Source: Candidatus Tayloriibacteriota bacterium (GTDB lineage: Bacteria > Patescibacteriota > Minisyncoccia > Phycocordibacterales > SIBU01). From it: a DNA stretch of 64,000 bases. This document shows positions 1,283 through 62,872 of the stretch, piece by piece (position 1 is the stretch's first letter; every line of letters begins with the position of its first letter). The translations under genes and the position numbers were made by a program. Location: assembly GCA_016188455.1 (NCBI GenBank), contig JACPHR010000018.1:5079-69078 (forward strand), written 5' to 3'. Under the pieces are notes generated by a model. The model searched no databases, had not been told where the DNA came from, and was given only the letters and a program-made list of their open reading frames with translations.

Positions 1283-2023
1283 AAAAAACCAAAAGTCATT
1301 GTCGCACTGCCCGCCTACAACGCGGCGGCGACCCTTGAAAAAACTGTCGCTGACGTGCCGATGGAGTATGTTTCGGAATTTATTCTGGTTGATGACGTGA
1401 GCAAGGATGAGACATTTTCGGTTGCCAAAAGGCTGAAGTCAAAAATTTCAAAACCGTTTACCATTTACCAGCACGACCAAAATCTTGGCTACGGCGGTAA
1501 TCAAAAAACTTGCTATACTCTCGCGCTCAAGCGCGGCGCCGACATCGTGGTCATGCTCCACCCCGATTACCAATATGACCCTAAGCTTATAAAATATTTC
1601 GTTGAATTTATCCGCGACGGCTATTTTGACGTCGTGCTCGGTTCTCGGGTGCGCAGTCGGAAGGAAACCCTCGCCGGAGGCATGCCGCCGTACAAATATA
1701 TAGCCAATCGTTTGCTCACTTTATGGTACAACATGGTGAGCGGTTACAACTTGTCGGAATGGCATACCGGCATGCGGGCCTATTCAAGAAAGGCGCTTGA
1801 GACGATAGAGTTTGAAAAATTTTCCGACGACTTCGTTTTTGACACGCAAATGCTGTTCGCCATTGTCGGACATTCTTTCCGCGTCGGCGATATCCCGGTG
1901 CCGTGCCGCTATTTCAAAGAGGCCTCTTCCATCAATCTTCGCCGGAGCATTTGCTACGGCCTAGCCGGAGTCTGGGAATCTTTCAAGCACCTCGCCCGCC
2001 GGATTTTTAAGAGAGAAGTTTAG
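1280..2023 (+). CDS. Family 2 glycosyltransferase (Dpm1/polyprenyl-phosphate sugar synthase-like)
   Basis: KVIVALPAYNAAATLEKTV...LVDDVSKDET GT2 signature; about 247 aa soluble GT-A. Confidence 0.7.
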   Translation: MKKPKVIVALPAYNAAATLEKTVADVPMEYVSEFILVDDVSKDETFSVAKRLKSKISKPFTIYQHDQNLGYGGNQKTCYTLALKRGADIVVMLHPDYQYDPKLIKYFVEFIRDGYFDVVLGSRVRSRKETLAGGMPPYKYIANRLLTLWYNMVSGYNLSEWHTGMRAYSRKALETIEFEKFSDDFVFDTQMLFAIVGHSFRVGDIPVPCRYFKEASSINLRRSICYGLAGVWESFKHLARRIFKREV

Positions 2024-2858
2024 TTTTTTCAAGCACCGGTTTCCACTCGGTTTTCAAATAGTCCACCAGCGCCTTTTGCCACGGGCGCATCAGATTTATT
2101 TTTGAAGTCAAAGCTTCATTGGCCACTCGTTTGGCCGGCAATTTAAAATGGCTTGAGCCAACGGGGATGACCGGCACTTTCTGTTTTAGAGTTTCAACGA
2201 TGAGTTTTGCCACGTCACAGCGCGACCCGCGCCCCTTGCCCGCGAGGTGATAAAGACCCCGCGCGTCTTTAGCGATCAGTTTTTTCAGAGCGCCGACCAA
2301 ATCTTTGGCATAGGTGGGCGAGCCCCAGCAATCGTCCAGAGCTTTGATTGCCGGTTTCTGGAACTGGGCGATGATTTTTGCCACGAACTTTTTGTCTTTT
2401 TTCGGCCCGCCGCCGAACATCCAGCAGGCGCGGGCGATAATATAATCCTTGAGCAGGCTTTGGATGACCAGTTCGCCTAAATATTTTGAACGGCCGTAGT
2501 GATTTTGCGGCCGGCCGGGATCGCTTTCCCGATAGAGACCTTTTTTCAGGCCGTCAAAAATGCCCGCCGTGGAGACATAAACCAGTTTGGCGCCGACCGC
2601 TCGGGCGGCGAGTGCCACATTATAAGTGCCGACGCTGTTTACGAGATAGGCTTGAGCCGGATTTTTTTCGCAGTAATCAAGGTCGGTGAGCGCCGCCAGA
2701 TGGATAATGGTTTTTGAGCGGTGGTTTTTGACGGCACTGAGCACCGCTTGGCCGTCGGTCACGTCAAGCTCGGCTCTGTTAAATTTTTTGCCGAAATCAA
2801 TATAAGAGCCGACCATGCCGTCGCCGCCTATGGTTAGGATTTGGGAAAGCGTCTTCAT
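2007..2858 (-). CDS. rmlD: dTDP-4-dehydrorhamnose reductase
   Basis: RmlD-like spacing of GxxGxxG (ILTIGGDGMVGS), YGRSK catalytic motif, STAGIFDG. Adjacent to rmlA/rmlB. Confidence 0.75.
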   Translation of the reverse strand: MKTLSQILTIGGDGMVGSYIDFGKKFNRAELDVTDGQAVLSAVKNHRSKTIIHLAALTDLDYCEKNPAQAYLVNSVGTYNVALAARAVGAKLVYVSTAGIFDGLKKGLYRESDPGRPQNHYGRSKYLGELVIQSLLKDYIIARACWMFGGGPKKDKKFVAKIIAQFQKPAIKALDDCWGSPTYAKDLVGALKKLIAKDARGLYHLAGKGRGSRCDVAKLIVETLKQKVPVIPVGSSHFKLPAKRVANEALTSKINLMRPWQKALVDYLKTEWKPVLEKTKLLS

Positions 2859-3595
2859 GATTTCGGGGCTCTTTGGGCGATGGTGTTGCTGGCCTGAAGC
2901 AGGGAATCAAACATGCCGACGTCAAACCAGAAGCCGGAAACGAATGAGAAACCGAGTTTGCCGCGCTTGAGGTACTCATTATTGGTGTCGGTGACTTCCA
3001 GTTCGCCTCGAGCGGAAGGTTTCAGTTTTTTAATATAAGAAAAGACTTTGGAATCGTATAAATAAAAACCGGTCTGGGCGTATTCGGACTTTGGTTTTTT
3101 CGGTTTTTCTTCTATGGCGAGGAGCTTTTTGCCGCTTTTGTCAAAGACCGCCACGCCGAACCGTTCCGGGTCGGGCACTTTTTTGAAAAACACCATGGCG
3201 CCGGTTTTAAATTCCGAGACGGCTTTGGAAAAGTTATCCTCAAAAATGTTGTCGCCTAAAATCACCGCGACGTTGTTTCGGTCGGCGAAATCTTCGGCAT
3301 ACAGCAGCGCGTCGGAAATGCCGCCGTTATTTTTGTCTTGGAGAGCGTAAGATAGTTTGACGCCGAATTCCTTGCCTGAGCCCAAGAAATTCATAAAGTG
3401 GCCGGCATGCTCCCGACCGCAAACAATCATGATTTCGGTAAGCCCGGAGCGTTTGAGAGTTTCTATGCCGTAAAGAATCATCGGTTTGTCGTAAACCGGC
3501 AAGAGGTGCTTATTGGTGATTTTGGTGAGCGGGTGGAGGCGCGTGCCAAGACCTCCAGCTAGTATTACGCCCTTCATGTTTGATTTATTCGCCAT
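2855..3595 (-). CDS. rmlA: Glucose-1-phosphate thymidylyltransferase
   Basis: MKGVILAGGLGTRLHPLT...LLPVYDKPMI typical RmlA N-terminus. The longer ORF (to 3673) overlaps rmlB; start taken at an internal ATG (3595, or possibly 3577). Confidence 0.8.
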   Translation of the reverse strand: MANKSNMKGVILAGGLGTRLHPLTKITNKHLLPVYDKPMILYGIETLKRSGLTEIMIVCGREHAGHFMNFLGSGKEFGVKLSYALQDKNNGGISDALLYAEDFADRNNVAVILGDNIFEDNFSKAVSEFKTGAMVFFKKVPDPERFGVAVFDKSGKKLLAIEEKPKKPKSEYAQTGFYLYDSKVFSYIKKLKPSARGELEVTDTNNEYLKRGKLGFSFVSGFWFDVGMFDSLLQASNTIAQRAPKS

Positions 3596-3627
3596 ATTTT
3601 TTCTATTTTCTACCTGCCCGACTACAT

Positions 3628-4701
3628 TCAGGCGGGTTTTCCATTTTCTTTTTTTATTTGATGCGCTTTCCATAAATCAATGTGGGGGTTGAAGACGCCG
3701 GTTCGCTTGCGCACCCGGTCTATCCATTTTGGGTTGTCTATATACCACTGCACGGTATCGCTAAAAGCCTTTTCAAAGGAATGGGTCGGCTGCCAGCCAA
3801 GTTCCGCGCGGATTCTTTTCGGATCAATAGCGTAACGGCGGTCGTGCCCTGGCCGGTCTCCCACATATTCTAGCCAACTTTCGTCGCGATTAAAATATTT
3901 TAAAATTCGGCGCGCGATGCCGGTGTTGTCCAGCTCGTTGTTTGCCCCAATATGATACACGCCGCCCGCAGCGCCTTGAAGCAGGCAAAGCTCCAAGGCG
4001 TGGCAGTGGTCCAATACGTAAATCCAATCTCTCACATGCTTGCCGTCGCCGTAAAGCGGCAGTTTTTTGTTTTCAAGCATCCGCGTGACGAAGAAGGGAA
4101 TAATTTTTTCCGGATACTGGTACGGGCCGTAGTTGTTTGAACAGTGGGTGACGACTACGGGCACTTGCCAGGTTGAATGGTAGGCTCGGCAGAGGAGGTC
4201 GCCTCCCGCCTTGGTGGCGGCGTAGGGCACGTTCGGCGCGAAGAGCGTGTATTCGTTAAACTTCTCTTTGGAATCAAGCGACAAGCTTCCATGCACTTCA
4301 TCAGTTGAAATTTGAACGTATTTTATAACCGTGGGGCTTGCTTTAACCGCTTCCAAAATGTTAAAAACCCCCTGAATGTTTGTTTTGATGAACTCAAGCG
4401 CGCCGACATGAATGCTTCGGTCCACGTGGGTTTCGGCGGCGCAGTTTAGGCAATAATCCGGCTGATGTTTTTTGAACGCGGCCGAAATGGTTTTTTCCTC
4501 CGCGATGTCTCCTTTGACGAAAGCATAGCGTTTGTCTCCCGCGATGTCTCCGAGATTGTCAAGGTTGCCGGAGTAGGTGAGCTTGTCCAGATTGACGATT
4601 TTGACGCGCGGGTATTTCCCCAGAATATAATGGATAAAATTGGAGCCGATGAAACCCGCGCCGCCGCAGACGAGGATGGTTTTGTCGTTAAAGGTTGCCA
4701 T
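3628..4701 (-). CDS. rmlB: dTDP-glucose 4,6-dehydratase
   Basis: ILVCGGAGFIGSNF, ...STDEVHG..., YAATKAGGD motifs of RmlB. Confidence 0.85.
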   Translation of the reverse strand: MATFNDKTILVCGGAGFIGSNFIHYILGKYPRVKIVNLDKLTYSGNLDNLGDIAGDKRYAFVKGDIAEEKTISAAFKKHQPDYCLNCAAETHVDRSIHVGALEFIKTNIQGVFNILEAVKASPTVIKYVQISTDEVHGSLSLDSKEKFNEYTLFAPNVPYAATKAGGDLLCRAYHSTWQVPVVVTHCSNNYGPYQYPEKIIPFFVTRMLENKKLPLYGDGKHVRDWIYVLDHCHALELCLLQGAAGGVYHIGANNELDNTGIARRILKYFNRDESWLEYVGDRPGHDRRYAIDPKRIRAELGWQPTHSFEKAFSDTVQWYIDNPKWIDRVRKRTGVFNPHIDLWKAHQIKKENGKPA

Positions 4702-9815: not shown

Positions 9816-9917
9816 GTTCTTCGTAGGATTTATATTGAAGATTATACCTTACATCATAAATAAAATATCTTCAAATAAGTGTGCTAGACGAGCACATCGG
9901 TGACAGTCCTATTCTTA

Positions 9918-9990
9918 CCTTGAATTACGAAACTCGGTTTCCGCGAAGAGAACTTCATCCCGCGCGCCTTGTCCGGACTGAGGCAAGCCC
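9918..9990. mobile_element. Truncated family-A element (left half only)
   Basis: ccttgaattacgaaactcggtttccgcgaagagaacttcatcccgcgcgccttgtccggac is the reverse complement of the right half of the nadE-internal copy. No matching right end is present. Confidence 0.4.
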
Positions 9991-10579: not shown

Positions 10580-11260
10580 ATGGGACGAGCACCACGAGTT
10601 GATGTCGGCGGCGAGGTCTATCATATTATAAATCGTGCCAACGGCCGGCAGACAATCTTCCACACAAAAGAGGAGTATTTGCATTTTGAGCAACTTCTCA
10701 CTGAAGCTAAAGAACTGAATAGCATGCGTATTCTTGCCTATATCCTTATGTCAAACCACTGGCACTTGGTACTTCATCCTCACCGTGACGGCGATCTTTC
10801 TGTGTTCATGCAATGGCTTACCTTAACTCACACCCAGCAATATCACTCAAGAACAAAAACGATTGGCTACGGCCATCTCTATCAGGGACGATACAAGTCA
10901 TTTCTCGTCGAAAAAGACAACCATCTTCTCCAGCTTATCCGCTATGTGGAGCGCAATGCTTTTCGTGCTAAACTTGTTAAACAGGCGGAGAATTGGCGAT
11001 GGGGAAGTGCATACCGGAGAACCCAGGGTGCACCGCAAGCAAAAGCATTACTGAGTGATACCATTATTGAGCTTCCCAAAGATTATCTTGAGTGGTTGAA
11101 CGAAAAAGAAGATGCGGGCGCCCTTGCTATTATTCGCCAGTCAGTAAACAAAGGAACCCCATTGGGAGCAGTAAAATGGGTCAAGCGGACAGTTGATAAA
11201 TTTGATTTACTTTTAACCACGCGCTTGCGTGGAAGGCCGAAAGATGAAAAAGGTACCTGA
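10580..11260 (+). CDS. REP-associated tyrosine transposase (RAYT; IS200/IS605-like HUH Y1 transposase)
   Basis: YHIINRANGRQTIF...ILAYILMSNHWHLVL (HuH motif) ...YQGRYKS (catalytic Tyr region). About 226 aa, typical RAYT length. Confidence 0.75.
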   Translation: MGRAPRVDVGGEVYHIINRANGRQTIFHTKEEYLHFEQLLTEAKELNSMRILAYILMSNHWHLVLHPHRDGDLSVFMQWLTLTHTQQYHSRTKTIGYGHLYQGRYKSFLVEKDNHLLQLIRYVERNAFRAKLVKQAENWRWGSAYRRTQGAPQAKALLSDTIIELPKDYLEWLNEKEDAGALAIIRQSVNKGTPLGAVKWVKRTVDKFDLLLTTRLRGRPKDEKGT

Positions 11261-13092: not shown

Positions 13093-14028
13093 TTAAGACG
13101 AGGAATGTTTCTTATGCCAATCAACCGTTTTCTTCAGTCCTTGCCGAAGGGCAGTTTTTGCTTGGAACCCGATTAGGTGTGATGCCCGACTGACGTCCAA
13201 AAAGCGCTTCAGCTCGCCTTCCGGCTTCGTCGTATCCCAACGTACCGTGCCTTCAAATCCGATGAGAGAGGACAGCAAGGCCACCAGCGCTTTTATTGAA
13301 ATGCCGGCGCCCGAACCGATATTGAGAGGCATCGCCTCATCGTACGACTCCGCGGCGCGGACAATGCCTTCGGTGGCGTCTTCAACGTAAATCAGGTCGC
13401 GCGTCGCCCGCCCCGTTCCCCAGGCTTCTATTTCTTTTTGGCCGCCTTTTTTTGCCTTCATAATTTTTTGGATGAGCGAGGGAATCATATAGCCGCTGGA
13501 AAACTTTTCACCCGGCCCGTAGGAATTCGTGAGAATCACGTGAATTGAATTGAATCCCGTCTGGCGCCGGTACAATTCGCCCTGCAGGGCGACAATCCGC
13601 TTTGACAAGCCGTAGGGGATGCTCGTTTCCAAAGGCAGGCCGTTCCAGAGGGCGTCTTCGCGCAGAGGCACCCTCGCGTCTTTGGGGTATTCTATCACGC
13701 TCCCAACAGTAACGACTTTTTGCGCTCCTGCCCGCCGCGCCGCCTCAAGAAGCTGTATGCCCATCATGAGATTCTCGTAAAAAAGCTCCCCGGGAATTTT
13801 GCCCCTAATGAGCAGGTCTCCGGTATTGGCGGCGCAGTCAAAGACCACTTCTATTCCTTTCGTGGCCTTCAGACAATCGTTCCATATGAGCAAGTTACAT
13901 TCCTTGGAAGACGGAGCAAAAATGCGCTCGTTCGGCACGCCGCGTTTTTTGAGCGTCTGGACCAAGTGAGAGCCGATAAATCCGCCGCCGCCTAGAACGA
14001 GGATTCGTTTGTTTTTCAGGTCGAGCAT
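13093..14028 (-). CDS. NAD-dependent epimerase/dehydratase (GDP-L-fucose synthase-like)
   Basis: RILVLGGGGFIGSHL Rossmann motif, YGLSK catalytic motif, extended-SDR architecture. Confidence 0.6.
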   Translation of the reverse strand: MLDLKNKRILVLGGGGFIGSHLVQTLKKRGVPNERIFAPSSKECNLLIWNDCLKATKGIEVVFDCAANTGDLLIRGKIPGELFYENLMMGIQLLEAARRAGAQKVVTVGSVIEYPKDARVPLREDALWNGLPLETSIPYGLSKRIVALQGELYRRQTGFNSIHVILTNSYGPGEKFSSGYMIPSLIQKIMKAKKGGQKEIEAWGTGRATRDLIYVEDATEGIVRAAESYDEAMPLNIGSGAGISIKALVALLSSLIGFEGTVRWDTTKPEGELKRFLDVSRASHLIGFQAKTALRQGLKKTVDWHKKHSSS

Positions 14029-15007
14029 TGATAGTATATCTTATACCATGAATGACAAGCCAACAACCATATGCTATTTCGGCTTGTATCGCCCCTCGGC
14101 TAGGGCTCTTGAAGGCCGGTACGACCTTCTTTGGGTCGGCTATTTGAGCACCATGGTGGCGCCGCTGGCGCGGCTTTTTTGCCGAAAGCCCATTGTTTTT
14201 AACGCCCTGGACTCTTGGTATGACAGAGCGATTCGCGATAGGGAAATGCATTCAAAGTTTTCTCCGGCGGCGTGGGGCATTTGGCTGTGCGATTTATTGG
14301 CGTTTCATTTGGCAACTGTTGTTTTAGTGGAGAGCGAAGCCCAGAAAAAGTTTTTGGCGAAAGAATTTCACGTCAATCCGAAAAAGCTCGCCGTGGTTTT
14401 TACCGGCGCCGACCCGTCCGTGTTTTTCCCCGACCCGTCCGTTAAAAAACGCGACCGTTTTACGGCCGTGTTCCGCGGCATGTTTTTGCCGGCCACGGGG
14501 GTGGAATATGTGATTGAGGCCGCTCGCATTCTCCGTGACCAGCCGATTGACTTTATCATTATCGGTTGGGGGCCGTTACTTTCCGAAGTTAAGGCCAAGT
14601 TTGCCGCATACGAACTTTCGCATGCGACGCTCATGGCCGAATTTCTGCCGCCGAAAGTTCTGCGGGAGCTGATGCTTTCCTGCCACGTGATGCTCGGTCA
14701 ATTCGGCAACCACCCGCGGCTTCTACGCACCATTCAACACAAGACATTTGAGGCCCTCGCTCTCGGCATGCCTTACATCACCCGCGACTCGGCGAGCAAC
14801 CGCGAACTTTTGACTGACGGCGTCAACTGCCTTTTGGTGCCGCCCGCCGATGCCTCCGCGTTGGCAAAGAAAATCATGCTTCTTGATAACAACAAGGCGC
14901 TCCGAGAAAGTTTGGCGAAGAATGCCCGCGTCACTTACGGGGAAAATTGCAGGGGAGATGTTCTGACCGCTGCCGTTTTGAAACTGCTCGAAACGTTTAA
15001 GCCTTAA
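14009..15007 (+). CDS. Glycosyltransferase family 4 (GT-B)
   Basis: C-terminal GT4 region (...FRGMFLPATGVEYVIEAAR..., ...MPYITRDSASNRELLTDGVNCLLV...). Confidence 0.55.
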   Translation: MFFRSSIDSISYTMNDKPTTICYFGLYRPSARALEGRYDLLWVGYLSTMVAPLARLFCRKPIVFNALDSWYDRAIRDREMHSKFSPAAWGIWLCDLLAFHLATVVLVESEAQKKFLAKEFHVNPKKLAVVFTGADPSVFFPDPSVKKRDRFTAVFRGMFLPATGVEYVIEAARILRDQPIDFIIIGWGPLLSEVKAKFAAYELSHATLMAEFLPPKVLRELMLSCHVMLGQFGNHPRLLRTIQHKTFEALALGMPYITRDSASNRELLTDGVNCLLVPPADASALAKKIMLLDNNKALRESLAKNARVTYGENCRGDVLTAAVLKLLETFKP

Positions 15008-15924
15008 GCTTTGGCGATGGCGCGGATGGTGCTAGAGACATAGTCAATTTGTTTTTCCGTGATAGCGAGGCCCGACGGCAGATAAAGACCGTTTTGCGCC
15101 GCAAAGGCCGCGTTGGGAAACCTCTCCCCGCCGATTATTTCTTTAAGCACTGGCTGTTCTTCGGGCGGATAAAAGAAGTCGCGGGTGTCAACGCCCTTTT
15201 CTTTGAGCTTTGCCCGAAGGGCGTCTTTGCTCAGACCGAATTTCTTTTCGTCCACGAGCGTCGCGTACATCCAATAGACATTTTTAACCCCGGGTTTGGT
15301 GATTGGCAGGCGCAGGCCGGGAATGCCAGCCAGTCCTTTTTCGTAGCTTTTCGCCATCTGTTGTTTGCGCTCAATATATTTCGGCAGATTGGCGAGTTCT
15401 CCGCAGCCGACGGCGGCTTGGAGGTTTCCCAGTCTGTAGTTGTAGCCGATTTCGTCGTGGATGAACCGTTTGGCTTTTGAGAAGCTGTATGACTTCAGTT
15501 GTCTCGCATGCTCCGCCCACTCGTCATTGTTGGTAATAAGCATGCCGCCTTCGCCGGTGCTGATGATTTTATTGGCGTAAAAACTGAAACAGCCGAAATC
15601 GCCCATGGCGCCGCAAAGTTTCTTTTTGTATTCGCCGCCGTGCGCTTCCGCCGCGTCTTCAATAACCCGCAGACGGTGTTTTTTGGCAATTTCTAAAATG
15701 GAGTTCATCTCGCAGGCGTGGCCGTAAATATGAACGGGTATAATGGCCTTTGTTCTCGGAGTAATTTTCGCTTCAATTTTTTTCGGGTCAATGTTCCAGG
15801 TATCAGGCTCGCAGTCCACGAAGACCGGGGTGGCGCCGGTGTACATCACGGCAAACCAAGGCGCCGCCATGGTGAAGGCCGGCACAATCACCTCGTCTCC
15901 CGGGCCCAAGCCGAGCGCGAGCAA
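15004..15924 (-). CDS. DegT/DnrJ/EryC1/StrS sugar aminotransferase, apparently N-terminally truncated
   Basis: Conserved ...ALGLGPGDEVIVPAFT..., ...EDAAEAHG..., FSFYANKIISTGEGG. The upstream in-frame residues (GTNGGAALHVALL) are preceded by a stop about 50 codons short of a normal DegT N-terminus. Confidence 0.6.
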   Translation of the reverse strand: MLALGLGPGDEVIVPAFTMAAPWFAVMYTGATPVFVDCEPDTWNIDPKKIEAKITPRTKAIIPVHIYGHACEMNSILEIAKKHRLRVIEDAAEAHGGEYKKKLCGAMGDFGCFSFYANKIISTGEGGMLITNNDEWAEHARQLKSYSFSKAKRFIHDEIGYNYRLGNLQAAVGCGELANLPKYIERKQQMAKSYEKGLAGIPGLRLPITKPGVKNVYWMYATLVDEKKFGLSKDALRAKLKEKGVDTRDFFYPPEEQPVLKEIIGGERFPNAAFAAQNGLYLPSGLAITEKQIDYVSSTIRAIAKA

Positions 15925-16006
15925 AGCGACATGCAGGGCCGCGCCGCCGTTGGTGCCACATTCTTTTTTGCCTCATCGGATATTACGGATTCGTTTACCG
16001 GTACGT

Positions 16007-17275
16007 TCATTGTGGTTTTTGAATATTTTTTAGCAGGGATTTTTGCCGCTCTTCAATAATTCTCATAATTGTCGCGTTATAATCGTCTTTTGTCCATAGC
16101 GAGAGCCGTTTTTGTCCGTTTAGAACTAGTTTCTTTCTTAGTTCCGCGTTATTCCAAAGCAGGTGAATCTTTTCGGCCATATCTTCGGGAGACTTGGGAT
16201 TTATGAGGAGCGCGGCGTCGCCGGCCTGCTCTTTACAGCCTCGGACGTTTGAATAGATTGCCGGACAATTCATTTGCCAGGCTTCAACCAACGGTATGTT
16301 GGTCCAGCCGAAGTAAGTGGGCATGATAAAACCGGTGGCCAGTCGGTATAAGGCCCCCATCTCTTCATTGTCAACATAGCCCAACAGATAGACCTGGGGT
16401 TCAAGGTTATTTTGTTTAATATACTGAAGCACTTTGTCGTAAGTTCCCCACAGCCCCCGTTTAGAGCCGGCCAGCGCCAGCGGCGCGATTTCATCCCTGT
16501 CTCTTAAGAGCTTGACCGCTTTGAGCAGGTTCAAATGATTTTTATGCGGCCAGAATTGCGCCGGATAAAAAAGAAATTTTTCCGGCAGAGAAAACTTGGC
16601 GGCGATTTGTTTCGCCTTTTGGACCGAGAGGTTGGTTTTAAGGTATTTCGGCGGCAGGGGAGGGAGAATGATGATTTTTTCCGGAGAGACGCCGTAATAG
16701 CGCGTTATGTCTTCTTTGCCGATTGGCGAATCAACCAGAATTCTGTAGGCGCGATTTTTGATGCGCTGATAGAGATACTGGCGCTTTTGCCGCTGGCCCA
16801 GTTTTGAAACTTCCGGAAATCTCGGATTGATGAGATGCTGCAAGTCTTGGATAGGCACGACGGCGGGAATGGGGTTAAGGAAAGACAATTCCGAAGGCCC
16901 ATGAAAAAAAATCAAGTCCGGATTTTCTTTCATGACGGCTTGAGCCCTTTTTTTCGCCCGCCAAGTCGTTAGAAAAATTTCCAGCCGGTAGAGGCGCAAT
17001 TTTTGGAGCATGCCGCGAATGAAGACCGAAAGCCTTCTTTCGGCGGTTTCTTTTTTCGCCGGCCCCGTTTTCGTTTCCGCCGCGCCGCCGCGGCGCATCA
17101 GATTGATGATTTTCCAGTTTGGCAGATTGAAATCGGCGAACGGAAAGTCCGAAGAAACGGTAAAGACGACAAAATCATGCTCTCGGTTTTCCCTTAAGGC
17201 ATCCAAAAGATTCAGAGCGTATTGATATACCCCGCCGCTGCTTTTTAGGCATTCAAAATAAAAACCGATGCGCAT
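16007..17275 (-). CDS. Glycosyltransferase family 4 (GT-B)
   Basis: C-terminal ...GFIMPTYFGWTNIPLVEAWQMNCPAIYSNVRGCKEQAGDAALLINP typical GT4 nucleotide-sugar binding region. Confidence 0.6.
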   Translation of the reverse strand: MRIGFYFECLKSSGGVYQYALNLLDALRENREHDFVVFTVSSDFPFADFNLPNWKIINLMRRGGAAETKTGPAKKETAERRLSVFIRGMLQKLRLYRLEIFLTTWRAKKRAQAVMKENPDLIFFHGPSELSFLNPIPAVVPIQDLQHLINPRFPEVSKLGQRQKRQYLYQRIKNRAYRILVDSPIGKEDITRYYGVSPEKIIILPPLPPKYLKTNLSVQKAKQIAAKFSLPEKFLFYPAQFWPHKNHLNLLKAVKLLRDRDEIAPLALAGSKRGLWGTYDKVLQYIKQNNLEPQVYLLGYVDNEEMGALYRLATGFIMPTYFGWTNIPLVEAWQMNCPAIYSNVRGCKEQAGDAALLINPKSPEDMAEKIHLLWNNAELRKKLVLNGQKRLSLWTKDDYNATIMRIIEERQKSLLKNIQKPQ

Positions 17276-17284
17276 AAGCTATTG

Positions 17285-17393
17285 TGAATTACGAAACTGG
17301 CGTGCTTCAAGAAACCCCTCCCGCTTGCCCCCCGTAAGGCCTTGAGCGCGCGGGAGGGGTTTCTTTTCGCACTAAGCAAGCCCTCGTAATTCA
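17285..17393. mobile_element. Family-A palindromic MITE-like element
   Basis: tgaattacgaaactgg...ccctcgtaattca ends; inner stem gaaacccctcccgc/gcgggaggggtttc. Fills the intercistronic gap between two minus-strand genes. Confidence 0.55.
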
Positions 17394-17401
17394 TAGTAAG
17401 T

Positions 17402-17812
17402 TTAGTCTATGAGCTTGTCTTTACCGGTGAGCCGGACGACGTCCGATTCAAATTCCGCGCCTTGGCGGGGACCTAAAGTGCAGCTTAACATGACGGCATC
17501 TTCCAAGGCTTTATAGGCGTGCCGCTGGGGGAACGGCTGGGTGACGAGGTCGCCGGCCACTACTATTTTTTCTTCCGTCGGCGCGGTCGCGTCCGGTCTG
17601 ACGCGGCACAAGAAAGAGCCGCTTAGGATGTAATCGTACTGCACGCTCTTGTTGTGGTAATGATTGCCCCGCACCGCGCCTTTCTTGAAAGTAATGTAGG
17701 TAATGGCGTCTACCAGAGTGTGGGTGGTAATGTCTCGGATAACGCCGCGTTCGTCCTCGAAACTATTTTTTATTTTTTTGACTATCATTTTTTTTGTATT
17801 CTTTGGCGTCAA
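17402..17812 (-). CDS. Cupin sugar 3,4-ketoisomerase (FdtA/QdtA/Tyl1a-like)
   Basis: FEDERGVIRDI...KKGAVRGNHYH core typical of TDP-4-keto-6-deoxyhexose 3,4-isomerases (WxcM-like cupin). Confidence 0.55.
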   Translation of the reverse strand: MTPKNTKKMIVKKIKNSFEDERGVIRDITTHTLVDAITYITFKKGAVRGNHYHNKSVQYDYILSGSFLCRVRPDATAPTEEKIVVAGDLVTQPFPQRHAYKALEDAVMLSCTLGPRQGAEFESDVVRLTGKDKLID

Positions 17813-19109
17813 CGATTCTTGGTTTTGGTATTGGTATTATAAATTTTCCTCCATTATCGCTAAAAACTTTCAAGTTATCAATGATTTCCTTTGAAAAGTT
17901 CCAAGCGAGCAAAATGGCGTAGTCGGGGCGGTTCTTAAGGAGTGCCAGGTCGGAGACAACCCGAATATAACCCCCGGCGTGGCCGCCCGGAGCGACCCGT
18001 CCCACTTTGAGGCGGGCTTTTTCCGAAATAAAACGAATATGGCGGTTGGTCAAGCCGACGTAGTTGATCAGGGTCATGCCTTTGGCCGGCGCGCTTACCG
18101 CCGCCACGGTTTTGCCTTGGCTCAAGAGCTTTTCCAGAAGTGCAATCAGCTCTTGGCGGTTTTTTTCAACCCGCCGAGCGAAGCCGCGCATGGTTTCCAG
18201 GCTGTGCAATTTACGCGATTCCTCCATTCGGATGAACTTCAAAACGCTTGGGTCGATTGGATGGGCATCTTTCCTCCCGACAAAAACCCGGAAGGAACCG
18301 CCGTGAATATCCGTCTGCTTTACCGTGAACACCGCCAGTCCGAATCGGGCAAAGAAAGGGACGAGAGGTTTGAGCGAAAGATATGAGAGGTGCTCGTGGT
18401 ATACGGTGTCGTATTCAAGGTTGTCCACGAGGTGCTGGAAGTAGGGCGATTCAAAAATAAAAACCCCGTCTTTTTTCAAAAGATATTTTACCGCCCGTAT
18501 CACCTCATCAAGGTCGTCGATATGGGCGAAGACATTGGCGCCGACGACGACCGACGCGGGTCCCTCCGCCCTTCGGATTTTTCCGGCGCTTTTCATGCCG
18601 AAGAAATCGCACAGAGTTTTGATGCCATTTTCTTTGTTGGCGATAGAGACGATATTGGGCGCGGGGTCAACGCCGACAACCCTCATGCCTTCCTTCTTGA
18701 AAGCGCCGAGTAGAGTGCCCACATTGCTGCCAATGTCAACGACTAGGCTTTTGGGCTTTAGTTTCAGTTCGCTTACCACCGAATGGGCAAAACTGTCCCA
18801 GTGGGACTGGCCGGTCTTGGTGGTGGATTGTTCGTAGGGGTAGTCGTGCTGGTAGAGTATTCGCGGGTCAACGACATGGCTTAACTGAGAGAGGCCGCAA
18901 TTTTTGCAAAGCAGCACGCGGAGAGGATAAAAAATTTCCGGCAGGTCAAGCTCGTCGGTCGCCCGAAACTGGTCTGCCGGCGGCGTCAGACCCAAGTCGA
19001 GGTAGAGCGCGAGATTCGGGCTTTTGCACATTCGGCAGTTTCGCGCCACTCGGTATAATTTTTCCAGCGCTCGGCTCTGGATGTCCGTTTTTTTGATTTT
19101 TCTCGGCAT
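17763..19109 (-). CDS. NDP-hexose C-methyltransferase (TylC3-like, zinc-ribbon plus class I MTase)
   Basis: N-terminal CxxC...CxxC (CRMCKSP...CKNCGL), then VVDIGSNVGTLL SAM motif and a C-terminal Methyltransf_14-like region. Confidence 0.55.
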   Translation of the reverse strand: MPRKIKKTDIQSRALEKLYRVARNCRMCKSPNLALYLDLGLTPPADQFRATDELDLPEIFYPLRVLLCKNCGLSQLSHVVDPRILYQHDYPYEQSTTKTGQSHWDSFAHSVVSELKLKPKSLVVDIGSNVGTLLGAFKKEGMRVVGVDPAPNIVSIANKENGIKTLCDFFGMKSAGKIRRAEGPASVVVGANVFAHIDDLDEVIRAVKYLLKKDGVFIFESPYFQHLVDNLEYDTVYHEHLSYLSLKPLVPFFARFGLAVFTVKQTDIHGGSFRVFVGRKDAHPIDPSVLKFIRMEESRKLHSLETMRGFARRVEKNRQELIALLEKLLSQGKTVAAVSAPAKGMTLINYVGLTNRHIRFISEKARLKVGRVAPGGHAGGYIRVVSDLALLKNRPDYAILLAWNFSKEIIDNLKVFSDNGGKFIIPIPKPRIVDAKEYKKNDSQKNKK

Positions 19110-19127
19110 GAATTTGGTGTGAATGGC

Positions 19128-19225
19128 GAAGTTCGCTTTCGGCGCAGAGAAACCCCTCCCGCGCGCCTTGGCTGGACTCTAGGCAAGCGGGAGGGGTTTC
19201 TTGAAGCGCGAGCTTCGCCATTCAC
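19128..19225. mobile_element. Diverged family-A element
   Basis: gtgaatggcgaagttcgc...gcgagcttcgccattcac ends (12/16 identity with the canonical TGAATTACGAAACTCG). Same internal gaaacccctcccgcgcgccttg...caagcgggaggggtttc core. Confidence 0.45.
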
Positions 19226-19253
19226 GGAAATTTAATGACAGATTTTCTCACAG

Positions 19254-20027
19254 TTACGGCTTTTTTGCAACGATTGCCATGGCCCACTTTTTGTCTGAAA
19301 TAGGGAGCTTGGCGTTACCGAATTGACAAGCGAGAGCCAGCTTGAAGCCGTGTCTTCGGAGTATTTTTCTGATGTCTCCAAGTTTCCAAGCGCGGACGCG
19401 GTGCTTTTCCGTTTCTCGTCCCGTAATTTTGCCGCTTTTAATTTCCATCAGTTCAATTTTCAGGTTGATCGTTTCGCCGCCGCCAAAAGGCGTCGCGTCC
19501 GTCAGGCGATAGAGTTCCGTAGGGCCCCGCCTAAATTTTACAAAGCGCGTTTTTGGCGGGTCTTTTTTCACGGCGCCGGCGTTCCAGCAGTCAAAAATAA
19601 ATACGGCTTTCGGTTTAAGCGCCCTCGCGGCGGTTATAAAAACCGCTTCCAATTCCTTGAGATTTTTGCAATAACCGATGACATTAAACATGGAAAGCGC
19701 GGCGTCAAATTTTTTGTCGGTTTGCCACGAGCGGATATCGCCGTGCTCGATGGTGACGCGCCGCAACCTTTCTTTTTTAATTTTTTGCCGAGCCAAAGCG
19801 ACCATGCCTTTTGAGAAATCAACGCCGTGAATGGTATACCCCTTTTTGAGCAAACACCGTTCGTGATTTAAGGTGCCCGCCCCAAAACTGGCGAGAGTTT
19901 TCGCGCCGGGCCGGCCATATTTTTTTAGGAGCGAACTAAAAAAGAGCGCCTCGCCGGCGTAATCTTTTTTGCCGTAGATGAGGTCGTAGTATTTGGAATG
20001 GAGTTTATTGAAAATGGTTAACGGCAT
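19254..20027 (-). CDS. SAM-dependent sugar N,N-dimethyltransferase (TylM1/DesVI-like)
   Basis: YYDLIYGKKDYAGEA...FGAGT...GVDFSKGMV...HGDIRSW...FNVIGY pattern of the TylM1 family. Confidence 0.5.
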   Translation of the reverse strand: MPLTIFNKLHSKYYDLIYGKKDYAGEALFFSSLLKKYGRPGAKTLASFGAGTLNHERCLLKKGYTIHGVDFSKGMVALARQKIKKERLRRVTIEHGDIRSWQTDKKFDAALSMFNVIGYCKNLKELEAVFITAARALKPKAVFIFDCWNAGAVKKDPPKTRFVKFRRGPTELYRLTDATPFGGGETINLKIELMEIKSGKITGRETEKHRVRAWKLGDIRKILRRHGFKLALACQFGNAKLPISDKKWAMAIVAKKP

Positions 20028-20133: not shown

Positions 20134-20893
20134 TTATTTCGGAGCCCACATTTCGTAGTACTCCCCGAGACATTTATTGATGTCATCCTCCACGGTATTC
20201 GGCACACCGTGAGCCTCGGACACTTCTCGCGCGAAGGCGCGGATGAAAAAGAGCAGGTGCTCAAACCGCCACGGATGGCGTTTGATCAACTTGCGGATTA
20301 GGGGAAATACCGCGTACCATTCAAGGATTCGATAGAAATTTTGGTAAAGGGTTTCGTAACCTTTCTTCCCCGGTTCCGCTTCGGCCGTTGAGCCGTAGCC
20401 GAAGGGATGTTTCGGTTCGTAGGCGGGCATTTTACAGCCGAGCCATTGGAAACCCGATATTCCACCGAGTACCCCGACCCGGTCCCATTTGTCCGCGAGC
20501 CGTAGCGCTTGGAGGACCGGTGAGTCATTTTCACTGTCTAGGAATTTGCTGTGCTCCTCCACCGCTTGGATGATCCTCGCGGCAACTTCTTCATTTAGTT
20601 TGTCCCATATCATTTCCCCCCAACACGACACGCAGAGTTTTCTCCGCAATTTCTTCCTGGAAAGCCCCGCAACGGTCAACATTGTGGAGCCACACGGCAA
20701 TCTCGTACTCAACCCTTTCAACTCTAGGAATGAGCTCGGCGATTTCAGGGAACATGCGCTCCATACGTAGCACGTGCGGGAGGTCATGGGCTCCTTGAGC
20801 GACGTAAAGCGGTCGAAGTTGTTTTTTCAAATTTTCTAGGAGTTTGTTCGCTTTCAAAGATTTCTCCTTTTTCAAGTTCTTCTTTAAACCCAC
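20134..20893 (-). pseudogene. Frameshifted paralog of the 53323-54042 HD-like protein
   Basis: The N-terminal part is in frame 20591-20893 (...PHVLRMERMFP...WLHNVDRC...) and the C-terminal part in 20134-20787 (...RLADKWDRVG...). The frame switch is near a C6/G6 homopolymer (about 20615). Confidence 0.5.
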
Positions 20894-23489: not shown

Positions 23490-24073
23490 TGAAAAAACAA
23501 CAAAATTACATCAATACGTATCTCACGCTCGTAAAAAAAGTCGTCGCGGGTCTGGACACCGCGGAGATTGAGGCCGTGATTTCCCTTTTGGTTAAGCTTA
23601 AAAAAGCGGGCGGCCGGCTTTTCCTCTTGGGGGTCGGCGGCTCGGCGGCCAATTGTTCTCACGCCGTCAACGATTTCCGGAAAATCTGCCGCATTGAAGC
23701 CTATGCGCCGACCGACAATGTGGCCGAATTGACGGCCAGAACCAACGATGACGGTTGGGGAACCGTTTTTTGCAACTGGCTTGAAGTCAGTAAGCTCACT
23801 TCCTCGGACATGGTTATGGTTTTGTCGGTCGGCGGCGGCCTCATGGAAAAAAACGTAAGCCCCAATATCGTCAAGGCCTTGGAGTTCGCGCAAAAAGTCG
23901 GCAGTGTCATCACCGGCATCGTCAGCCGCGACGGCGGCTATACTCGAAAAGTGGCGACTGCCTCCATTCTCATTCCCATTGGCGAAGCGGATTTCATTAC
24001 GCCCCTCGCCGAAAGTTTTCAGGCGGTCATCTGGCATTTGCTGGTGACTCATCCGAAACTCGCCAAACATTGA
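23489..24073 (+). CDS. gmhA: Phosphoheptose (sedoheptulose-7-phosphate) isomerase
   Basis: SIS domain: ...GRLFLLGVGGSAANCSHAVNDF...VMVLSVGGG.... Confidence 0.75.
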   Translation: MKKQQNYINTYLTLVKKVVAGLDTAEIEAVISLLVKLKKAGGRLFLLGVGGSAANCSHAVNDFRKICRIEAYAPTDNVAELTARTNDDGWGTVFCNWLEVSKLTSSDMVMVLSVGGGLMEKNVSPNIVKALEFAQKVGSVITGIVSRDGGYTRKVATASILIPIGEADFITPLAESFQAVIWHLLVTHPKLAKH

Positions 24074-24109
24074 CAAAGAAACTCATACATGCTACGCTTT
24101 TAACAGTCT

Positions 24110-24919: not shown

Positions 24920-24927
24920 AAATCAAG

Positions 24928-60815: not shown

Positions 60816-61745
60816 TTATTTATTTTGTTTATACCACTTATAGGTGGACCGGACACCCTCTTCAAGCGGGATTTGGTGGCGCCAGCCCAGAGCGTGAATT
60901 TTTGAGACGTCAAGCCGTTTCCGGGGCATGCCGTCCGGGTTTTTCCCGTCCCAGACGACCCGGCCCTTAAAGCCCACGATTTTTTTTATCAGTTGGGCCA
61001 GTGCTTTGATGGAAATATCTTCCCCGGTGCCGACATTTATAATTTCGCTCCGGTTGTAATGCTCCATCAGAAAAACGGCGGCATCGGCGAAATCGTCAAC
61101 ATGGAGAAATTCCCGCCGCGCCACGCCGGTTCCCCAGAGGGTCAATGCTTTTTTGCCGGTTTTTTTCGCTTCATGAAATTTGCGGATGAGCGCCGGCAGA
61201 ACATGAGAGTTTTTAAGGTCAAAATTGTCATTCGGGCCGTACATATTTGTCGGCATGGCTGAAATAAAATTGGTGCCGTATTCCTCGTTATAGGACTGGC
61301 AGCTAATAATGCCGGCGATTTTGGCGATGGCGTATGCCCTGTTGGTCGGTTCCAGCGGACCGGAGAGGAAGTACTCTTCCTTAATCGGTTGCGGCGAGAG
61401 GCGGGGATAGATGCATGAACTGCCCAGGAACAGCAATTTTTTGATGCCGCTTACGTAGGAATTCTCTATGACATTTGACTGCACGACCAGATTTTCATGG
61501 ATAAACTCGGCCGGGTAATTTTTATTTGACATAATGCCCCCCACTTTGGCCGCGGCGAGAAAGACGTACTCCGGCTTTTCTTTTTTAAAAAAATCGGCCA
61601 CTTTTTTTTGGTCCAAAAGCTCCAGTTCGTCTCGGGTTCTAAGCGTCAGGTTCCCGAAGCCGCGCGCTTTAAGCGCCCGAACGATAGCGGACCCCACCAG
61701 CCCGCGGTGACCGGCAACGTAAACTTTTGAATGCTTCTTCATCAT
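60816..61745 (-). CDS. fcl: GDP-L-fucose synthase
   Basis: KVYVAGHRGLVGSAI...LTLRTRDELELLD...YAIAKIAG...NMYGPNDNF..., classic Fcl. Overlaps the gmd stop. Confidence 0.8.
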   Translation of the reverse strand: MMKKHSKVYVAGHRGLVGSAIVRALKARGFGNLTLRTRDELELLDQKKVADFFKKEKPEYVFLAAAKVGGIMSNKNYPAEFIHENLVVQSNVIENSYVSGIKKLLFLGSSCIYPRLSPQPIKEEYFLSGPLEPTNRAYAIAKIAGIISCQSYNEEYGTNFISAMPTNMYGPNDNFDLKNSHVLPALIRKFHEAKKTGKKALTLWGTGVARREFLHVDDFADAAVFLMEHYNRSEIINVGTGEDISIKALAQLIKKIVGFKGRVVWDGKNPDGMPRKRLDVSKIHALGWRHQIPLEEGVRSTYKWYKQNK

Positions 61746-62872
61746 TAGGCCTTTTTTATTCCGCCCTTGGCCAGCTCGCTTCGGAGAGTGCTCTCAATGT
61801 CCGCGGTCACCATTTCCTTGATGAGTTCGTGGAATTTTATTTTCGGTTTCCAGCCCAGTTCCTTAGAGGCTTTTCGAGGGTCGGCGCGCAGCGAATTGAC
61901 TTCCGCCGGTCGGAAATAGTTGAGGTCAATCGCCACTAGCACGTCTCCGGTCTTCGCGTCCACGCCTTTTTCATTCTGGCCGGCGCCGCGCCATTTCAGA
62001 GTGACGCCGATTTGCTTGAACGCCAGTTCGCACAATTGCCGGACCGAGTGCTGTCTGCCGGTGCCTATGACGTAATCTTTCGGTTTCGGCTGCTGGAGCA
62101 TCAGGTACATGGCTTCCACGTAGTCTTGGGCGTGGCCCCAGTCGCGGCGGGCTTCCAGGTTGCCGAGGTAGAGTTTGTTTTGAAGCCCCAATTTTATTTT
62201 TGCCACCGCCGACGTGATTTTTCGGCTGACGAAGGTTTCGCCGCGCCGCGGGCTTTCGTGGTTGAAGAGAATGCCGTTGACGGCGAAGAGGCCGTAGGAT
62301 TCGCGGTAGTTGATGGTGGCGTAGTAGGCGGCCGCTTTGGAAACGCCGTAGGGCGACCGGGGAGCGAATTTCGTGTTTTCATTTTGCGGCGGCGGAGCCG
62401 AGCCGAACATCTCGCTTGACGACGCTTGGTAAAATTTTACTTTCTTGCCGGTTTGTTTTTGGTAGTCGCGGATGGCTTCAAGGACGCGGAAGACCCCGAG
62501 GCCAGTGATATTGCCGGTGTACTCCGCCATGTCAAAGGACACTTTTACGTGCGATTGGGCGGCGAGGTTGTAAATTTCATCCGGTTCAAGGGTAAAAATC
62601 AGTTTCTTAATGTTGCTCGCGTCCGACAGGTCGCCGTAGTGGAGAAAAAGTCGGGTGCCGCGAATGTGCGGGTCCTGATAAAGGTGCTCAATCCGGCCGG
62701 TATTGAAAGTGGAAACCCGCCGGATGAGCCCGTGCACCTCGTAACCCTTTTTGAGCAGAAGCTCGGTGAGATACGAGCCGTCCTGGCCGGTGATGCCGGT
62801 GATGAAAGCGCGTTTAACTTTTTTAGTATTCTTTGTCGCGCGCGCGGTTTTCATTTTAGATTCTTTTTTCAT
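61745..62872 (-). CDS. gmd: GDP-mannose 4,6-dehydratase
   Basis: [28 protein letters not shown], ...FNHESPRRG.... Confidence 0.85.

Follow-up and report, generated by a model that had tools for sequence, protein, structure and literature searches.

The window, a 64,000-nt stretch of the genome of a groundwater Candidatus Taylorbacteria (CPR), carries a cassette that is widely shared yet unstudied. The region had been taken in an earlier, sequence-only reading for a nucleotide-sugar tailoring cluster, and this description holds. All of the open reading frames named there are present and belong to the superfamilies given. The features of the cassette and of the possible precursor genes are listed here:

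2007..4701, minus strand: RmlD-like, RmlA-like and RmlB genes
13093..14028, minus strand: GDP-L-fucose-synthase-like SDR, 311 aa (200 bits with NCBIfam Fcl, whose cut-off is 500)
14048..15007, plus strand: convergent GT4 glycosyltransferase
15004..15954, minus strand: DegT-family aminotransferase, perosamine-synthase-like, 3′ 316 codons, otherwise intact (PF01041, relatives)
15954..15955 (15954|15955), minus strand: junction of a 103-nt deletion (mafft and blastn against L005, L006, L007 and L008)
15955..16010, minus strand: 5′ remnant of the aminotransferase gene, ATG plus 18 codons MNVPVNESVISDEAKKNV
16007..17275, minus strand: GT4 glycosyltransferase, 422 aa, inside the cassette (Pfam Glycos_transf_1, Glyco_transf_4)
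17276..17401, no strand: palindromic repeat element, second copy, between the cupin and GT4 genes (blastn, nhmmer, folding)
17402..17788, minus strand: cupin, 128 aa, canonical HxH..Q..H site, predicted NDP-4-ketosugar epimerase or isomerase
17763..19109, minus strand: NDP-hexose C-methyltransferase, 448 aa, TylC3/TcaB9/MtmC family (Pfam Methyltransf_13 and Methyltransf_14)
19111..19235, no strand: palindromic repeat element, ~125 nt, between the N- and C-methyltransferase genes (blastn, nhmmer, folding)
19254..20027, minus strand: SAM-dependent methyltransferase, 257 aa, TylM1/DesVI-like, predicted sugar N-methyltransferase
60816..61745, minus strand: Fcl-like SDR (Fcl, 476 bits)
61745..62872, minus strand: GDP-mannose 4,6-dehydratase, Gmd (TIGR01472, 551 bits, above cut-off)

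The enzymes of the cassette and their relatives

Both methyltransferases bear out the families first proposed for them. DesVI and TylM1 are the best solved relatives of the 257-aa enzyme (132 and 119 bits with its family profile, nearly full length), and its AF2 model (pLDDT 96.7) matched TylM1, DesVI, CalS10 and KedS8 in Foldseek at TM 0.8-0.87. It keeps the SMF(S/N)xxGY motif, with F114 aligned to TylM1 F118 and Y119 matching the DesVI tyrosine, while Tyr14 of TylM1 is replaced by Phe (6m81 is the Y14F form). The TylC3-like C-methyltransferase aligned end to end with the mycarose 3-C-methyltransferase 4rv9 (304 bits) and with TcaB9 (233 bits), and is a clear member of the family that includes the MtmC and TcaB9 structures.

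The cupin was correctly placed in its family, but its reading frame had been drawn as 17402-17812, and translation in fact begins at the ATG of 17788, which yields the 128 aa of NCBI protein P0001. The gene shares its first 26 nt with the end of the C-methyltransferase gene, stop codon included, and the two are probably translationally coupled. In fold, nucleotide-sugar ketoisomerases and epimerases matched it equally well, and Pfam and NCBIfam profile searches found no RmlC match. Because the FdtA-like RGxHxH..Q motif is kept, ketoisomerase chemistry is conceivable, although identity with the FdtA/Tyl1a 3,4-ketoisomerases, as first suggested, is not demonstrable. The C-terminal cupin domain of CapF (S. 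aureus Cap5F) is a C3-epimerase of a UDP-4-hexulose; that domain, however, works on UDP-sugars as part of a fusion with an SDR, and in this comparison the cupin of the cassette scored 26.2 in Pfam, under the cut-off of 28.7.

The aminotransferase had been read as a C3 enzyme. A full-length DegT relative scored 301 bits with GDP-perosamine synthase (Per), a C4 aminotransferase, versus 213 bits with the C3 enzymes QdtB and DesV (TylB lay outside this comparison), and the top NCBIfam matches were all 4-aminotransferases. Per is the best solved relative after the uncharacterised 7b0m; 3bn1 and 3dr4 are the Caulobacter Per structures. The enzyme is perosamine-synthase-like and groups with 4-aminotransferases, although the regiochemistry of DegT enzymes is a property that similarity alone does not reliably reveal.

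Among 61 loci of many phyla gathered with the cupin as bait, a sample outside which DegT plus N-methyltransferase pairs lacking a cupin fall, the C-methyltransferase adjoins the cupin in 55. DegT accompanies 27 of these pairs, while the other 28 lack both DegT and the N-methyltransferase; the constant neighbour of the cupin is the C-methyltransferase and not an aminotransferase. The N-methyltransferase gene, in turn, occurs only where DegT does (17/17 loci with DegT vs 0/32 without). The module order is kept in L005, L006 and L008, and the embedded GT4, presumed to be the transferase for the cassette sugar, is placed alike in L005 and L008; in several phyla a similar GT4 comes after the cassette. 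Such a gene set had been thought unusual outside actinomycetes, but related cassettes are found in many phyla of archaea and bacteria, the latter including Rhizobium, Acidobacteriota, Verrucomicrobiota, Omnitrophota and CPR members.

A branched 4-amino sugar as the predicted product

We propose, with a probability of roughly one half, that the conserved module of N-methyltransferase, C-methyltransferase, cupin, GT4 and DegT aminotransferase starts from an NDP-4-keto-6-deoxyhexose and makes a branched amino sugar for a cell-surface glycan. The product is most likely a C-methylated, N-methylated 4-amino-6-deoxy sugar; the best reading of its class is a 4-(methyl)amino-4,6-dideoxy-3-C-methylhexose resembling sibirosamine and kansosamine, and not a 3-dimethylamino-3,6-dideoxyhexose. 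Each step of the following scheme is predicted from the genes. A 4,6-dehydratase, either RmlB (~10 kb away) or Gmd (~42 kb away), would supply the 4-keto sugar, on dTDP or GDP as carrier, and the TylC3/TcaB9-type enzyme would methylate C3, beside the 4-keto group. Enzymes of the TylC3/TcaB9/EvaC type methylate a carbon alpha to the 4-keto group, which survives for reduction or transamination. The small cupin would then epimerise or otherwise isomerise the 4-keto intermediate, most plausibly at C5, by analogy with TylK and EvaD acting after TylC3 and EvaC. Amination of C4 by the perosamine-synthase-like DegT enzyme, one or two methylations of the new amine by the TylM1/DesVI-like enzyme and transfer by the embedded GT4 would complete the pathway. 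The order found in many loci (dehydratase, C-methyltransferase, cupin, DegT, N-methyltransferase, GT4) is collinear with this chemistry, which we count in its favour.

Either of two gene sets in the window might provide the precursor. One possible source, by a dTDP route, comprises RmlB (3628-4701; TIGR01181, 428 bits, above cut-off), the RmlA-like enzyme (2855-3673; TIGR01207, 251 bits, below cut-off) and the RmlD-like enzyme (2007-2858); rmlA and rmlB had been listed at 2855-4701, and both are present. The alternative is a GDP route through Gmd and the adjacent Fcl-like SDR (60816..62872). Orthologous cassettes adjoin Gmd (nine loci), CDP-glucose genes (Rhizobium) or RmlA/RmlB, and in L005, L008 and L009 RmlB and RmlA are 5-10 kb from the cassette. 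Gmd and a Per-like aminotransferase recall the GDP-perosamine pathway (Gmd plus Per), although perosamine has neither a C-methyl branch nor an N-methyl group, and in the lineage of the window RmlA/RmlB lie nearer to the cassette than Gmd.

Among the closest known pathways are those to the sibirosamine of sibiromycin and the N-acylkansosamine of the Mycobacterium kansasii LOS, 4-amino-4,6-dideoxy-3-C-methylhexoses made by 4,6-dehydration, C3-methylation, epimerisation and C4 amination, with N-methylation in sibirosamine. The step set predicted for the cassette is the same. Those pathways, however, use an RmlC-family epimerase, reside in actinomycete natural-product or LOS clusters and, for sibirosamine, end in transfer by a GT1-type enzyme, whereas the cassette has an unrelated 128-aa cupin in the epimerase slot, a GT4 transferase and a CPR host. 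Its order of C-methyltransferase, cupin and 4-keto-processing enzyme also mirrors the C-methylation, 5-epimerisation and 4-ketoreduction of mycarose and epivancosamine synthesis, but TylK and EvaD are RmlC-family proteins of ~200 aa, and no 2-deoxygenation genes were seen.

Alternative routes

It is unlikely, though worth weighing, that two sugars arise from one 4-keto precursor: a virenose/evalose-type 6-deoxy-3-C-methylhexose made by the C-methyltransferase, the cupin and an SDR, and an unbranched N-methyl-4-amino-4,6-dideoxyhexose made by DegT and the N-methyltransferase. The candidates for the SDR are the 311-aa Fcl-like enzyme and the RmlD-like enzyme; the former (157 bits to GDP-L-fucose synthase structures) is possibly an epimerase/4-reductase for a sister 4-hydroxy branch. 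The 28 loci with neither DegT nor N-methyltransferase often have SDRs, L015 has cupin, DegT and N-methyltransferase with no recognisable C-methyltransferase, and the cluster in the window holds a pair of GT4 genes along with an Fcl-like SDR. A GDP-linked pathway proposed for Coxiella burnetii virenose, with Gmd, the TylCIII-like CBU_0691 and the Fcl-like CBU_0688, offers a precedent for a TylC3-type C-methyltransferase working with Gmd and Fcl-like enzymes in a surface glycan, and the window likewise encodes Gmd and three Fcl-like SDRs; virenose, however, has no amino group, and a cupin is not mentioned in that study (PMC3539893). Against two products, 16 loci have the four genes side by side on a single strand, mostly with one GT4, and the module of L008 has no adjoining SDR.

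The route first suggested, in which an FdtA/Tyl1a-type cupin, a 3-aminotransferase and a 3-N,N-dimethyltransferase yield a mycaminose-like dTDP-3-dimethylamino-3,6-dideoxyhexose, is improbable. The N-methyltransferase does have the fold of its counterparts in the mycaminose and desosamine pathways (Tyl1a, TylB, TylM1; DesV, DesVI), but the cassette adds a C-methyltransferase, lacks a demonstrable 3,4-ketoisomerase, and has a DegT enzyme that is not closest to DesV/QdtB. Moreover, C3-methylation leaves C3 without a hydrogen, so a C3-methylated sugar cannot undergo 3,4-isomerisation, and a route via a 3-keto sugar would leave the C-methyltransferase unused. A vancosamine/tetronitrose-type route (2,3-dehydration, C3 amination and C3 methylation of the 3-amino-4-keto sugar, giving a 3-amino-3-C-methyl sugar) is established for the C-methyltransferase relatives TcaB9, KijD1 and EvaC, but can be practically dismissed here, as the scan of the cluster ORFs yielded no hexose 2,3-dehydratase (31.8-53.3 kb lay outside the profiled set) and 3-aminotransferases are not the closest relatives of DegT.

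A deletion in the aminotransferase gene

As suspected from its length, the aminotransferase is defective in the assembled sequence: the 306-aa frame at 15004-15924 (PF01041, 328 bits) begins to match at profile position 56/360, while relatives 85-87% identical have 369-370 aa. The gene's own ATG survives at 16010-16008, overlapping the GT4 stop, but in another frame than the 3′ part, and beyond codon 18 the remnant is out of frame and stops after 40 aa. The 103-nt deletion takes out codons ~20-53 (ESLRTGWLSSAGPFV...HAVTV) and puts the rest of the gene in another frame. Rescue by frameshifting, the earlier idea, is excluded, since it could not restore the 34 conserved codons that the DNA has lost. 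In the branched-amino-sugar pathway, this haplotype would be blocked at the amination step. The remaining 316 codons contain no stop or frameshift and retain 85-87% identity to intact relatives, which suggests that the deletion is recent or polymorphic.

It is conceivable, if on balance doubtful, that the lesion reflects a choice made in assembly or a minority allele, with an intact gene co-existing and the pathway working in situ. The clean remainder of the gene favours this idea, as does a Logan contig, L001 (run SRR12113385), which is 99.75% identical over 3221 nt and ends exactly at 15955, the last base common to the deleted and intact forms. Such a break in an independent assembly is the behaviour expected at an assembly-graph branch and hints at a mixed population. 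However, no intact allele of >87% identity occurs in the protein collection, the assembler output implies that junction k-mers are present in the reads, and the adjoining convergent GT4 bears a second deletion, an in-frame loss of 37 codons (~111 nt) near 14100 in the N-terminal domain (evident when the protein is aligned to those of L005 and L008; in blastn the match is interrupted between 14094 and 14119). The cassette also differs from its relatives by the palindromic repeat elements: L005 has a 20-nt gap in place of the copy at 19111..19235, relatives have a 3-nt gap at the second site, and the element folds with a delta-G of about -71 kcal/mol.

Gene content of the sugar module and its predicted product

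The most likely product of the module is an NDP-4-(methyl)amino-4,6-dideoxy-3-C-methylhexose, a sugar of the sibirosamine/kansosamine type destined for a surface glycan. The sequence-only reading had taken the same genes for a mycaminose/desosamine-like pathway to a TDP-3-dimethylamino-3,6-dideoxyhexose. Profile and structure-relative searches located all of the genes on which it drew, and yet four lines of evidence speak against that assignment: the family affinity of the cupin, the gene neighbourhood of the cupin, the relatives of the aminotransferase, and the very presence of a C-methyltransferase. The genes concerned are as follows.

19254-20027, minus strand: N-methyltransferase, 257 aa
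17763-19109, minus strand: C-methyltransferase, 448 aa
17402-17788, minus strand: cupin, 128 aa
16007-17275, minus strand, as the rest of the module: GT4 transferase
15004-15954, minus strand: DegT-family aminotransferase
14048-15007, plus strand, convergent with the module: GT4 transferase
3628-4701: RmlB, above the NCBIfam equivalog cut-off
Next to RmlB: RmlA-like (2855-3673) and RmlD-like (2007-2858) genes (NCBIfam)

The C-methyltransferase possesses zinc-ribbon, Rossmann and C-terminal domains (PF08421, PF13489 and PF08484) and aligns end to end with the mycarose 3-C-methyltransferase 4rv9 (304 bits, residues 20-438) and with TcaB9 (233 bits), the alignment showing four cysteines (CRMC...CKNC) and a YHEHLSY motif; this architecture and these alignments bear out its designation as TylC3-like. 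Enzymes of the TylC3/TcaB9/EvaC type methylate the carbon beside the 4-keto group. Because methylation at C3 leaves no hydrogen on that carbon, neither 3,4-ketoisomerisation nor C3 amination could follow it, while the 4-keto group stays available for transamination, and C4 amination is therefore the consistent reading.

The aminotransferase belongs to the DegT/DnrJ/EryC1 family (PF01041, 328 bits). Aligned through P0118, a full-length intact relative, its FSFYANKIISTGEGG corresponds to FSFFGNKIITTGEGG in the GDP-perosamine synthase Per, which we take to be the PLP-lysine motif. P0118 scores 307 bits with 7b0m and 301 with Per, a C4 enzyme, as compared with 213 for each of the C3 aminotransferases QdtB and DesV, and the leading NCBIfam matches (LegC, PseC, WecE, ArnB and DesI) are all C4 aminotransferases. 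The top structural relative, 7b0m, is uncharacterised and labelled only "sugar aminotransferase"; a literature search on PDB entries 7B0M and 7B0D returned nothing usable. By sequence, the characterised enzymes nearest to the window enzyme appear to be 4-aminotransferases rather than 3-aminotransferases, a pattern suggestive of C4 regiochemistry.

The best characterised solved relatives of the N-methyltransferase, a class I enzyme, are DesVI and TylM1, so that the TylM1/DesVI-like call was sound. A family profile built from 60 relatives matches DesVI with 132 bits (positions 4-228 of 254) and TylM1 with 119 bits, scores equalled by methyltransferases of unknown function (1wzn, 3d2l and 1y8c). 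The predicted structure (pLDDT 96.7) superimposes on TylM1, DesVI, CalS10 and KedS8 with Foldseek TM values of 0.8-0.87. Relative to the TylM1 active site, Tyr14 is replaced by Phe (F6, at least 90% conserved), Phe118 is kept as F114, and His123 is replaced by Tyr (Y119), as it also is in DesVI. Among related loci the gene is confined to those with a DegT aminotransferase (17 of 17, versus 0 of 32 lacking DegT). This gene context supports action of the N-methyltransferase on the amino sugar formed by the neighbouring aminotransferase, and is equally compatible with mono- and dimethylation.

A cupin family partnered with C-methyltransferases

The cupin (P0001; identical to NCBI protein HYV67_03015) adopts an FdtA-like, small single-domain fold, and its H43 and H45 may correspond to the catalytic His-x-His pair of FdtA, His49 and His51. 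Its identification as an FdtA/Tyl1a 3,4-ketoisomerase is nevertheless not supported, since the protein has no match to PF05523 (FdtA/QdtA/Tyl1a), even at E<=1, and its constant neighbour is the C-methyltransferase. Of 50 relatives, 32 match PF05523 weakly (best 8e-7), and all 50 match PF14667, the CapF C-terminal cupin, at E<=1 (best 8e-9); P0001 itself reaches 26.2 bits with PF14667, below the cut-off of 28.7, and otherwise has generic cupin matches. The family profile finds Mn-cupins first, followed by the Cap5F cupin domain (31 bits), WxcM-like proteins (27), archaeal RmlC (27), QdtA (22) and FdtA (17), the last two at E values of 0.001-0.025. RmlC 3,5-epimerases are proteins of about 180 aa whose catalytic Tyr is carried by a C-terminal extension. 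An RmlC-type identity was rejected for this 128-aa protein, which matches neither PF00908 nor TIGR01221 of NCBIfam; PF00908 gives weak matches in six of the 50 relatives, and an S. enterica RmlC probe matched nothing in the window. Four residues, H43, H45, Q50 and H90, are invariant among the 50 relatives; in the alignment they fall on H95, H97, E101 and H140, the residues that bind Mn in oxalate decarboxylase (OxdC) and that occupy generic cupin metal-ligand positions, indicating that the canonical cupin metal site is retained.

To define the genomic context of this family, 80 genome loci encoding cupin relatives were fetched and their ORFs classified using the window proteins, giving 61 loci with a clear cupin. 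A TylC3-type C-methyltransferase directly adjoins the cupin, usually with overlap, in 55 of the 61. A DegT gene lies within 5 kb in 27 of these 55, accompanied by the N-methyltransferase in 16, and the other 28 have neither, often carrying SDR genes instead. An adjacent C-methyltransferase in 55 of the 61, with no aminotransferase in 28 of these 55, makes the C-methyltransferase rather than the aminotransferase the obligate partner of the cupin, in contrast to the ketoisomerase-aminotransferase pairs FdtA/FdtB, QdtA/QdtB and Tyl1a/TylB. DegT enzymes and reductase-like SDRs appear to alternate as the enzyme that removes the 4-keto group.

Besides CPR bacteria, the cassette is found in archaea and in Rhizobium, Acidobacteriota, Verrucomicrobiota and Omnitrophota. 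In five loci the SDR gene that immediately precedes the C-methyltransferase/cupin pair encodes a bona fide GDP-mannose 4,6-dehydratase (Gmd), and its counterpart in a sixth, L030, falls just under the Gmd cut-off (388 vs 415); phmmer places Gmd within 4 kb in nine loci overall. For Coxiella virenose, GDP-linked methylation of the TylCIII type is a published proposal (PMC3539893). A purely GDP-linked pathway, considered on account of the Gmd genes beside six cassettes, was withdrawn because of CDP-glucose genes in Rhizobium and of true RmlA and RmlB near the cassette of another cupin-bearing locus, L052, and of Taylorbacteria relatives. In Rhizobium phaseoli (L025), the only one of three rhizobia to be profiled, the genes downstream of the cassette encode glucose-1-phosphate cytidylyltransferase, CDP-glucose 4,6-dehydratase, a second C-methyltransferase and RmlC. 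The window encodes both RmlA/RmlB and Gmd, and the carrier nucleotide may be either dTDP or GDP.

The full cassette (C-methyltransferase, cupin, DegT, N-methyltransferase and GT4) is present in the culturable R. phaseoli, R. redzepovicii (L028) and R. bangladeshense (L031), in each of which its downstream neighbours are a weak 4,6-dehydratase-like SDR and a second C-methyltransferase. These rhizobia offer a tractable system for the predicted sugar.

In the proposed pathway the cupin would epimerise or isomerise the 4-keto intermediate, ketoisomerase and epimerase being inseparable by sequence and fold comparison of the protein. The cassette is a combination of known enzyme families, and its novel element is the cupin family. 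The most far-reaching proposal is that this cupin founds an uncharacterised, probably metal-dependent family acting on NDP-4-keto sugars with the C-methyltransferase as obligate partner, and that the widespread dehydratase/C-methyltransferase/cupin/Per-like/TylM1-like cassette makes a C-methyl, N-methyl 4-amino-6-deoxyhexose new to surface glycans; we hold it tentatively, at a probability of about three in ten. In a bolder variant the substrate of the cupin would be the tertiary alpha-ketol arising from C-methylation, and its reaction, e.g. a ketol rearrangement, would be more than a simple epimerisation. To our knowledge, actinomycete antibiotics and a few mycobacterial glycolipids are almost the only sources of branched N-methylated amino sugars. 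Should the reading of the module be right, uncultivated bacteria and archaea, as well as culturable Rhizobium, commonly carry a compact cassette for such a sugar, and the small cupin would join sugar C-methyltransferases as a new enzymatic partner, useful for glycodiversification.

Deletions in the aminotransferase and convergent GT4 genes

Full-length relatives of the aminotransferase are 369-370 aa long and 85-87% identical to the window protein, and in their four loci (L005-L008) the module is present with its gene order unchanged. Alignment with these relatives shows the window to be short of exactly 103 nt between 15955 and 15954. The original ATG at 16010, which overlaps the GT4 stop, survives upstream of the deletion together with 18 codons (MNVPVNESVISDEAKKNV), past which the frame shifts, and translation from this ATG ends after 40 residues. 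The DegT N-terminus is conserved in the segment that was lost, ESLRTGWLSSAGPFV...KHAVTV. As the sequence-only reading had noticed, the aminotransferase is incomplete: its PF01041 match begins at profile position 56, positions 1-55 are absent, and the N-terminal part of the fold is not whole. The programmed frameshift that the same reading had entertained is ruled out, because no frameshifting mechanism can restore the 34 conserved codons that are missing. The remaining 316 codons contain no other stop or frameshift. The amination step is knocked out in the assembled haplotype, and the 306-aa "aminotransferase" of the public annotation (ORF 15004-15924) is really a deletion remnant.

A Logan contig, L001 (run SRR12113385), matches the window with 99.75% identity over 3221 nt and ends exactly at 15955, the last base shared by the deleted and intact forms, its other end lying in a repeat. 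Such ends are as expected from a branch in a de Bruijn graph and are a hint of a population with both deleted and intact alleles. None of the C-methyltransferase, the SDR and the two GT4 genes gave a match in exact-product look-ups, so that no other assemblies spanning the two deletion junctions were recovered, and a 25-mer from upstream of the aminotransferase junction was absent from the scanned JGI metagenome contigs. The second junction lies in the convergent GT4 gene, which, relative to L005 and L008, has lost 37 codons in frame near 14100, in its N-terminal domain; this deletion, likewise of about 100 nt (111 nt), is within 2 kb of that in the aminotransferase.

Surrounding glycan genes and palindromic elements

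The window belongs to a CPR (Patescibacteria) metagenome-assembled genome: the cupin protein HYV67_03015 comes from a Candidatus Taylorbacteria MAG, and the 306-aa aminotransferase ORF is identical to a protein annotated on the same 90.7-kb contig. Glycan genes predominate in the window, among them GT2, GT4, GT87 and PMT_2 transferases, heptose-type activation genes and UDP-glucose dehydrogenase. Features outside the module include the following.

54153-62872, minus strand: Gmd (551 bits), two Fcl-like SDRs related to GDP-L-fucose synthase (476 and 234 bits), another SDR, split transketolase genes and a Wzm/Wzt ABC exporter
43219-44469, plus strand: second, distant DegT-family paralogue, 416 aa, 119 bits to P0118
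44470-45456: SDR
22452-27358: GHMP kinase, SIS (GmhA-like) isomerase, HAD phosphatase, nucleotidyltransferase and transaldolase, a heptose-type activation set
20134-20787, minus strand: 217-aa ORF directly upstream of the N-methyltransferase, with no Pfam match
7611-9815, minus strand: GT2 and GT87 domains fused in a single 734-aa ORF

The first of these is an ABC-transporter-dependent glycan pathway supplied with GDP-6-deoxyhexose, and the DegT paralogue with its SDR could be part of another amino- or deoxy-sugar route. The kinase, isomerase, phosphatase and nucleotidyltransferase types of the heptose set adjoin the module in L005 too, which suggests that NDP-heptose is made for the same glycan as the module's product. 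L005 has a 222-aa ORF with a faint HD-domain match in the place of the 217-aa ORF, blastn finding no similarity over the body of the window ORF, and two adjacent genes (238 and 471 aa) in place of the GT2-GT87 fusion, at whose junction the window is about 70 nt longer.

The window also carries palindromic elements of two types, the first with about seven copies in the 64 kb, all of them intergenic.

17276-17401, 19111-19235, 29596-29718, 40154-40276, 40784-40943 and 45472-45570: palindromes of about 110-125 nt
9914-9988: half copy of the same type
25396-25532 and 39730-39870: second type, about 135 nt

Elements of the first type form long hairpins (delta-G -59 to -71 kcal/mol) with arms such as TTGAATTACGAAACT...GAAACCCCTCCCGC / GCGGGAGGGGTTTC...AGTTTCGTAATTCA, and look like MITE or REPIN elements. 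Two copies lie within the sugar module, at gaps that measure 3 and 20 nt in relatives. The copy of the second type at 25396-25532 is inserted in frame inside a sugar-1-phosphate nucleotidyltransferase ORF (24968-25822, minus strand), where it adds about 45 residues (284 aa vs 239 aa in L005) and interrupts the Pfam match, leaving two stretches; the other copy is 87.5% identical and intergenic. Recent lesions and mobile palindromic insertions in a surface-glycan locus are consistent with rapid cell-surface variation in an episymbiotic CPR bacterium. About 600 nt from the half palindrome copy, an IS200-like Y1 transposase ORF (10580-11260, plus strand; 226 aa, Pfam Y1_Tnp 57 bits) could mobilise the palindromes in the manner of a RAYT.
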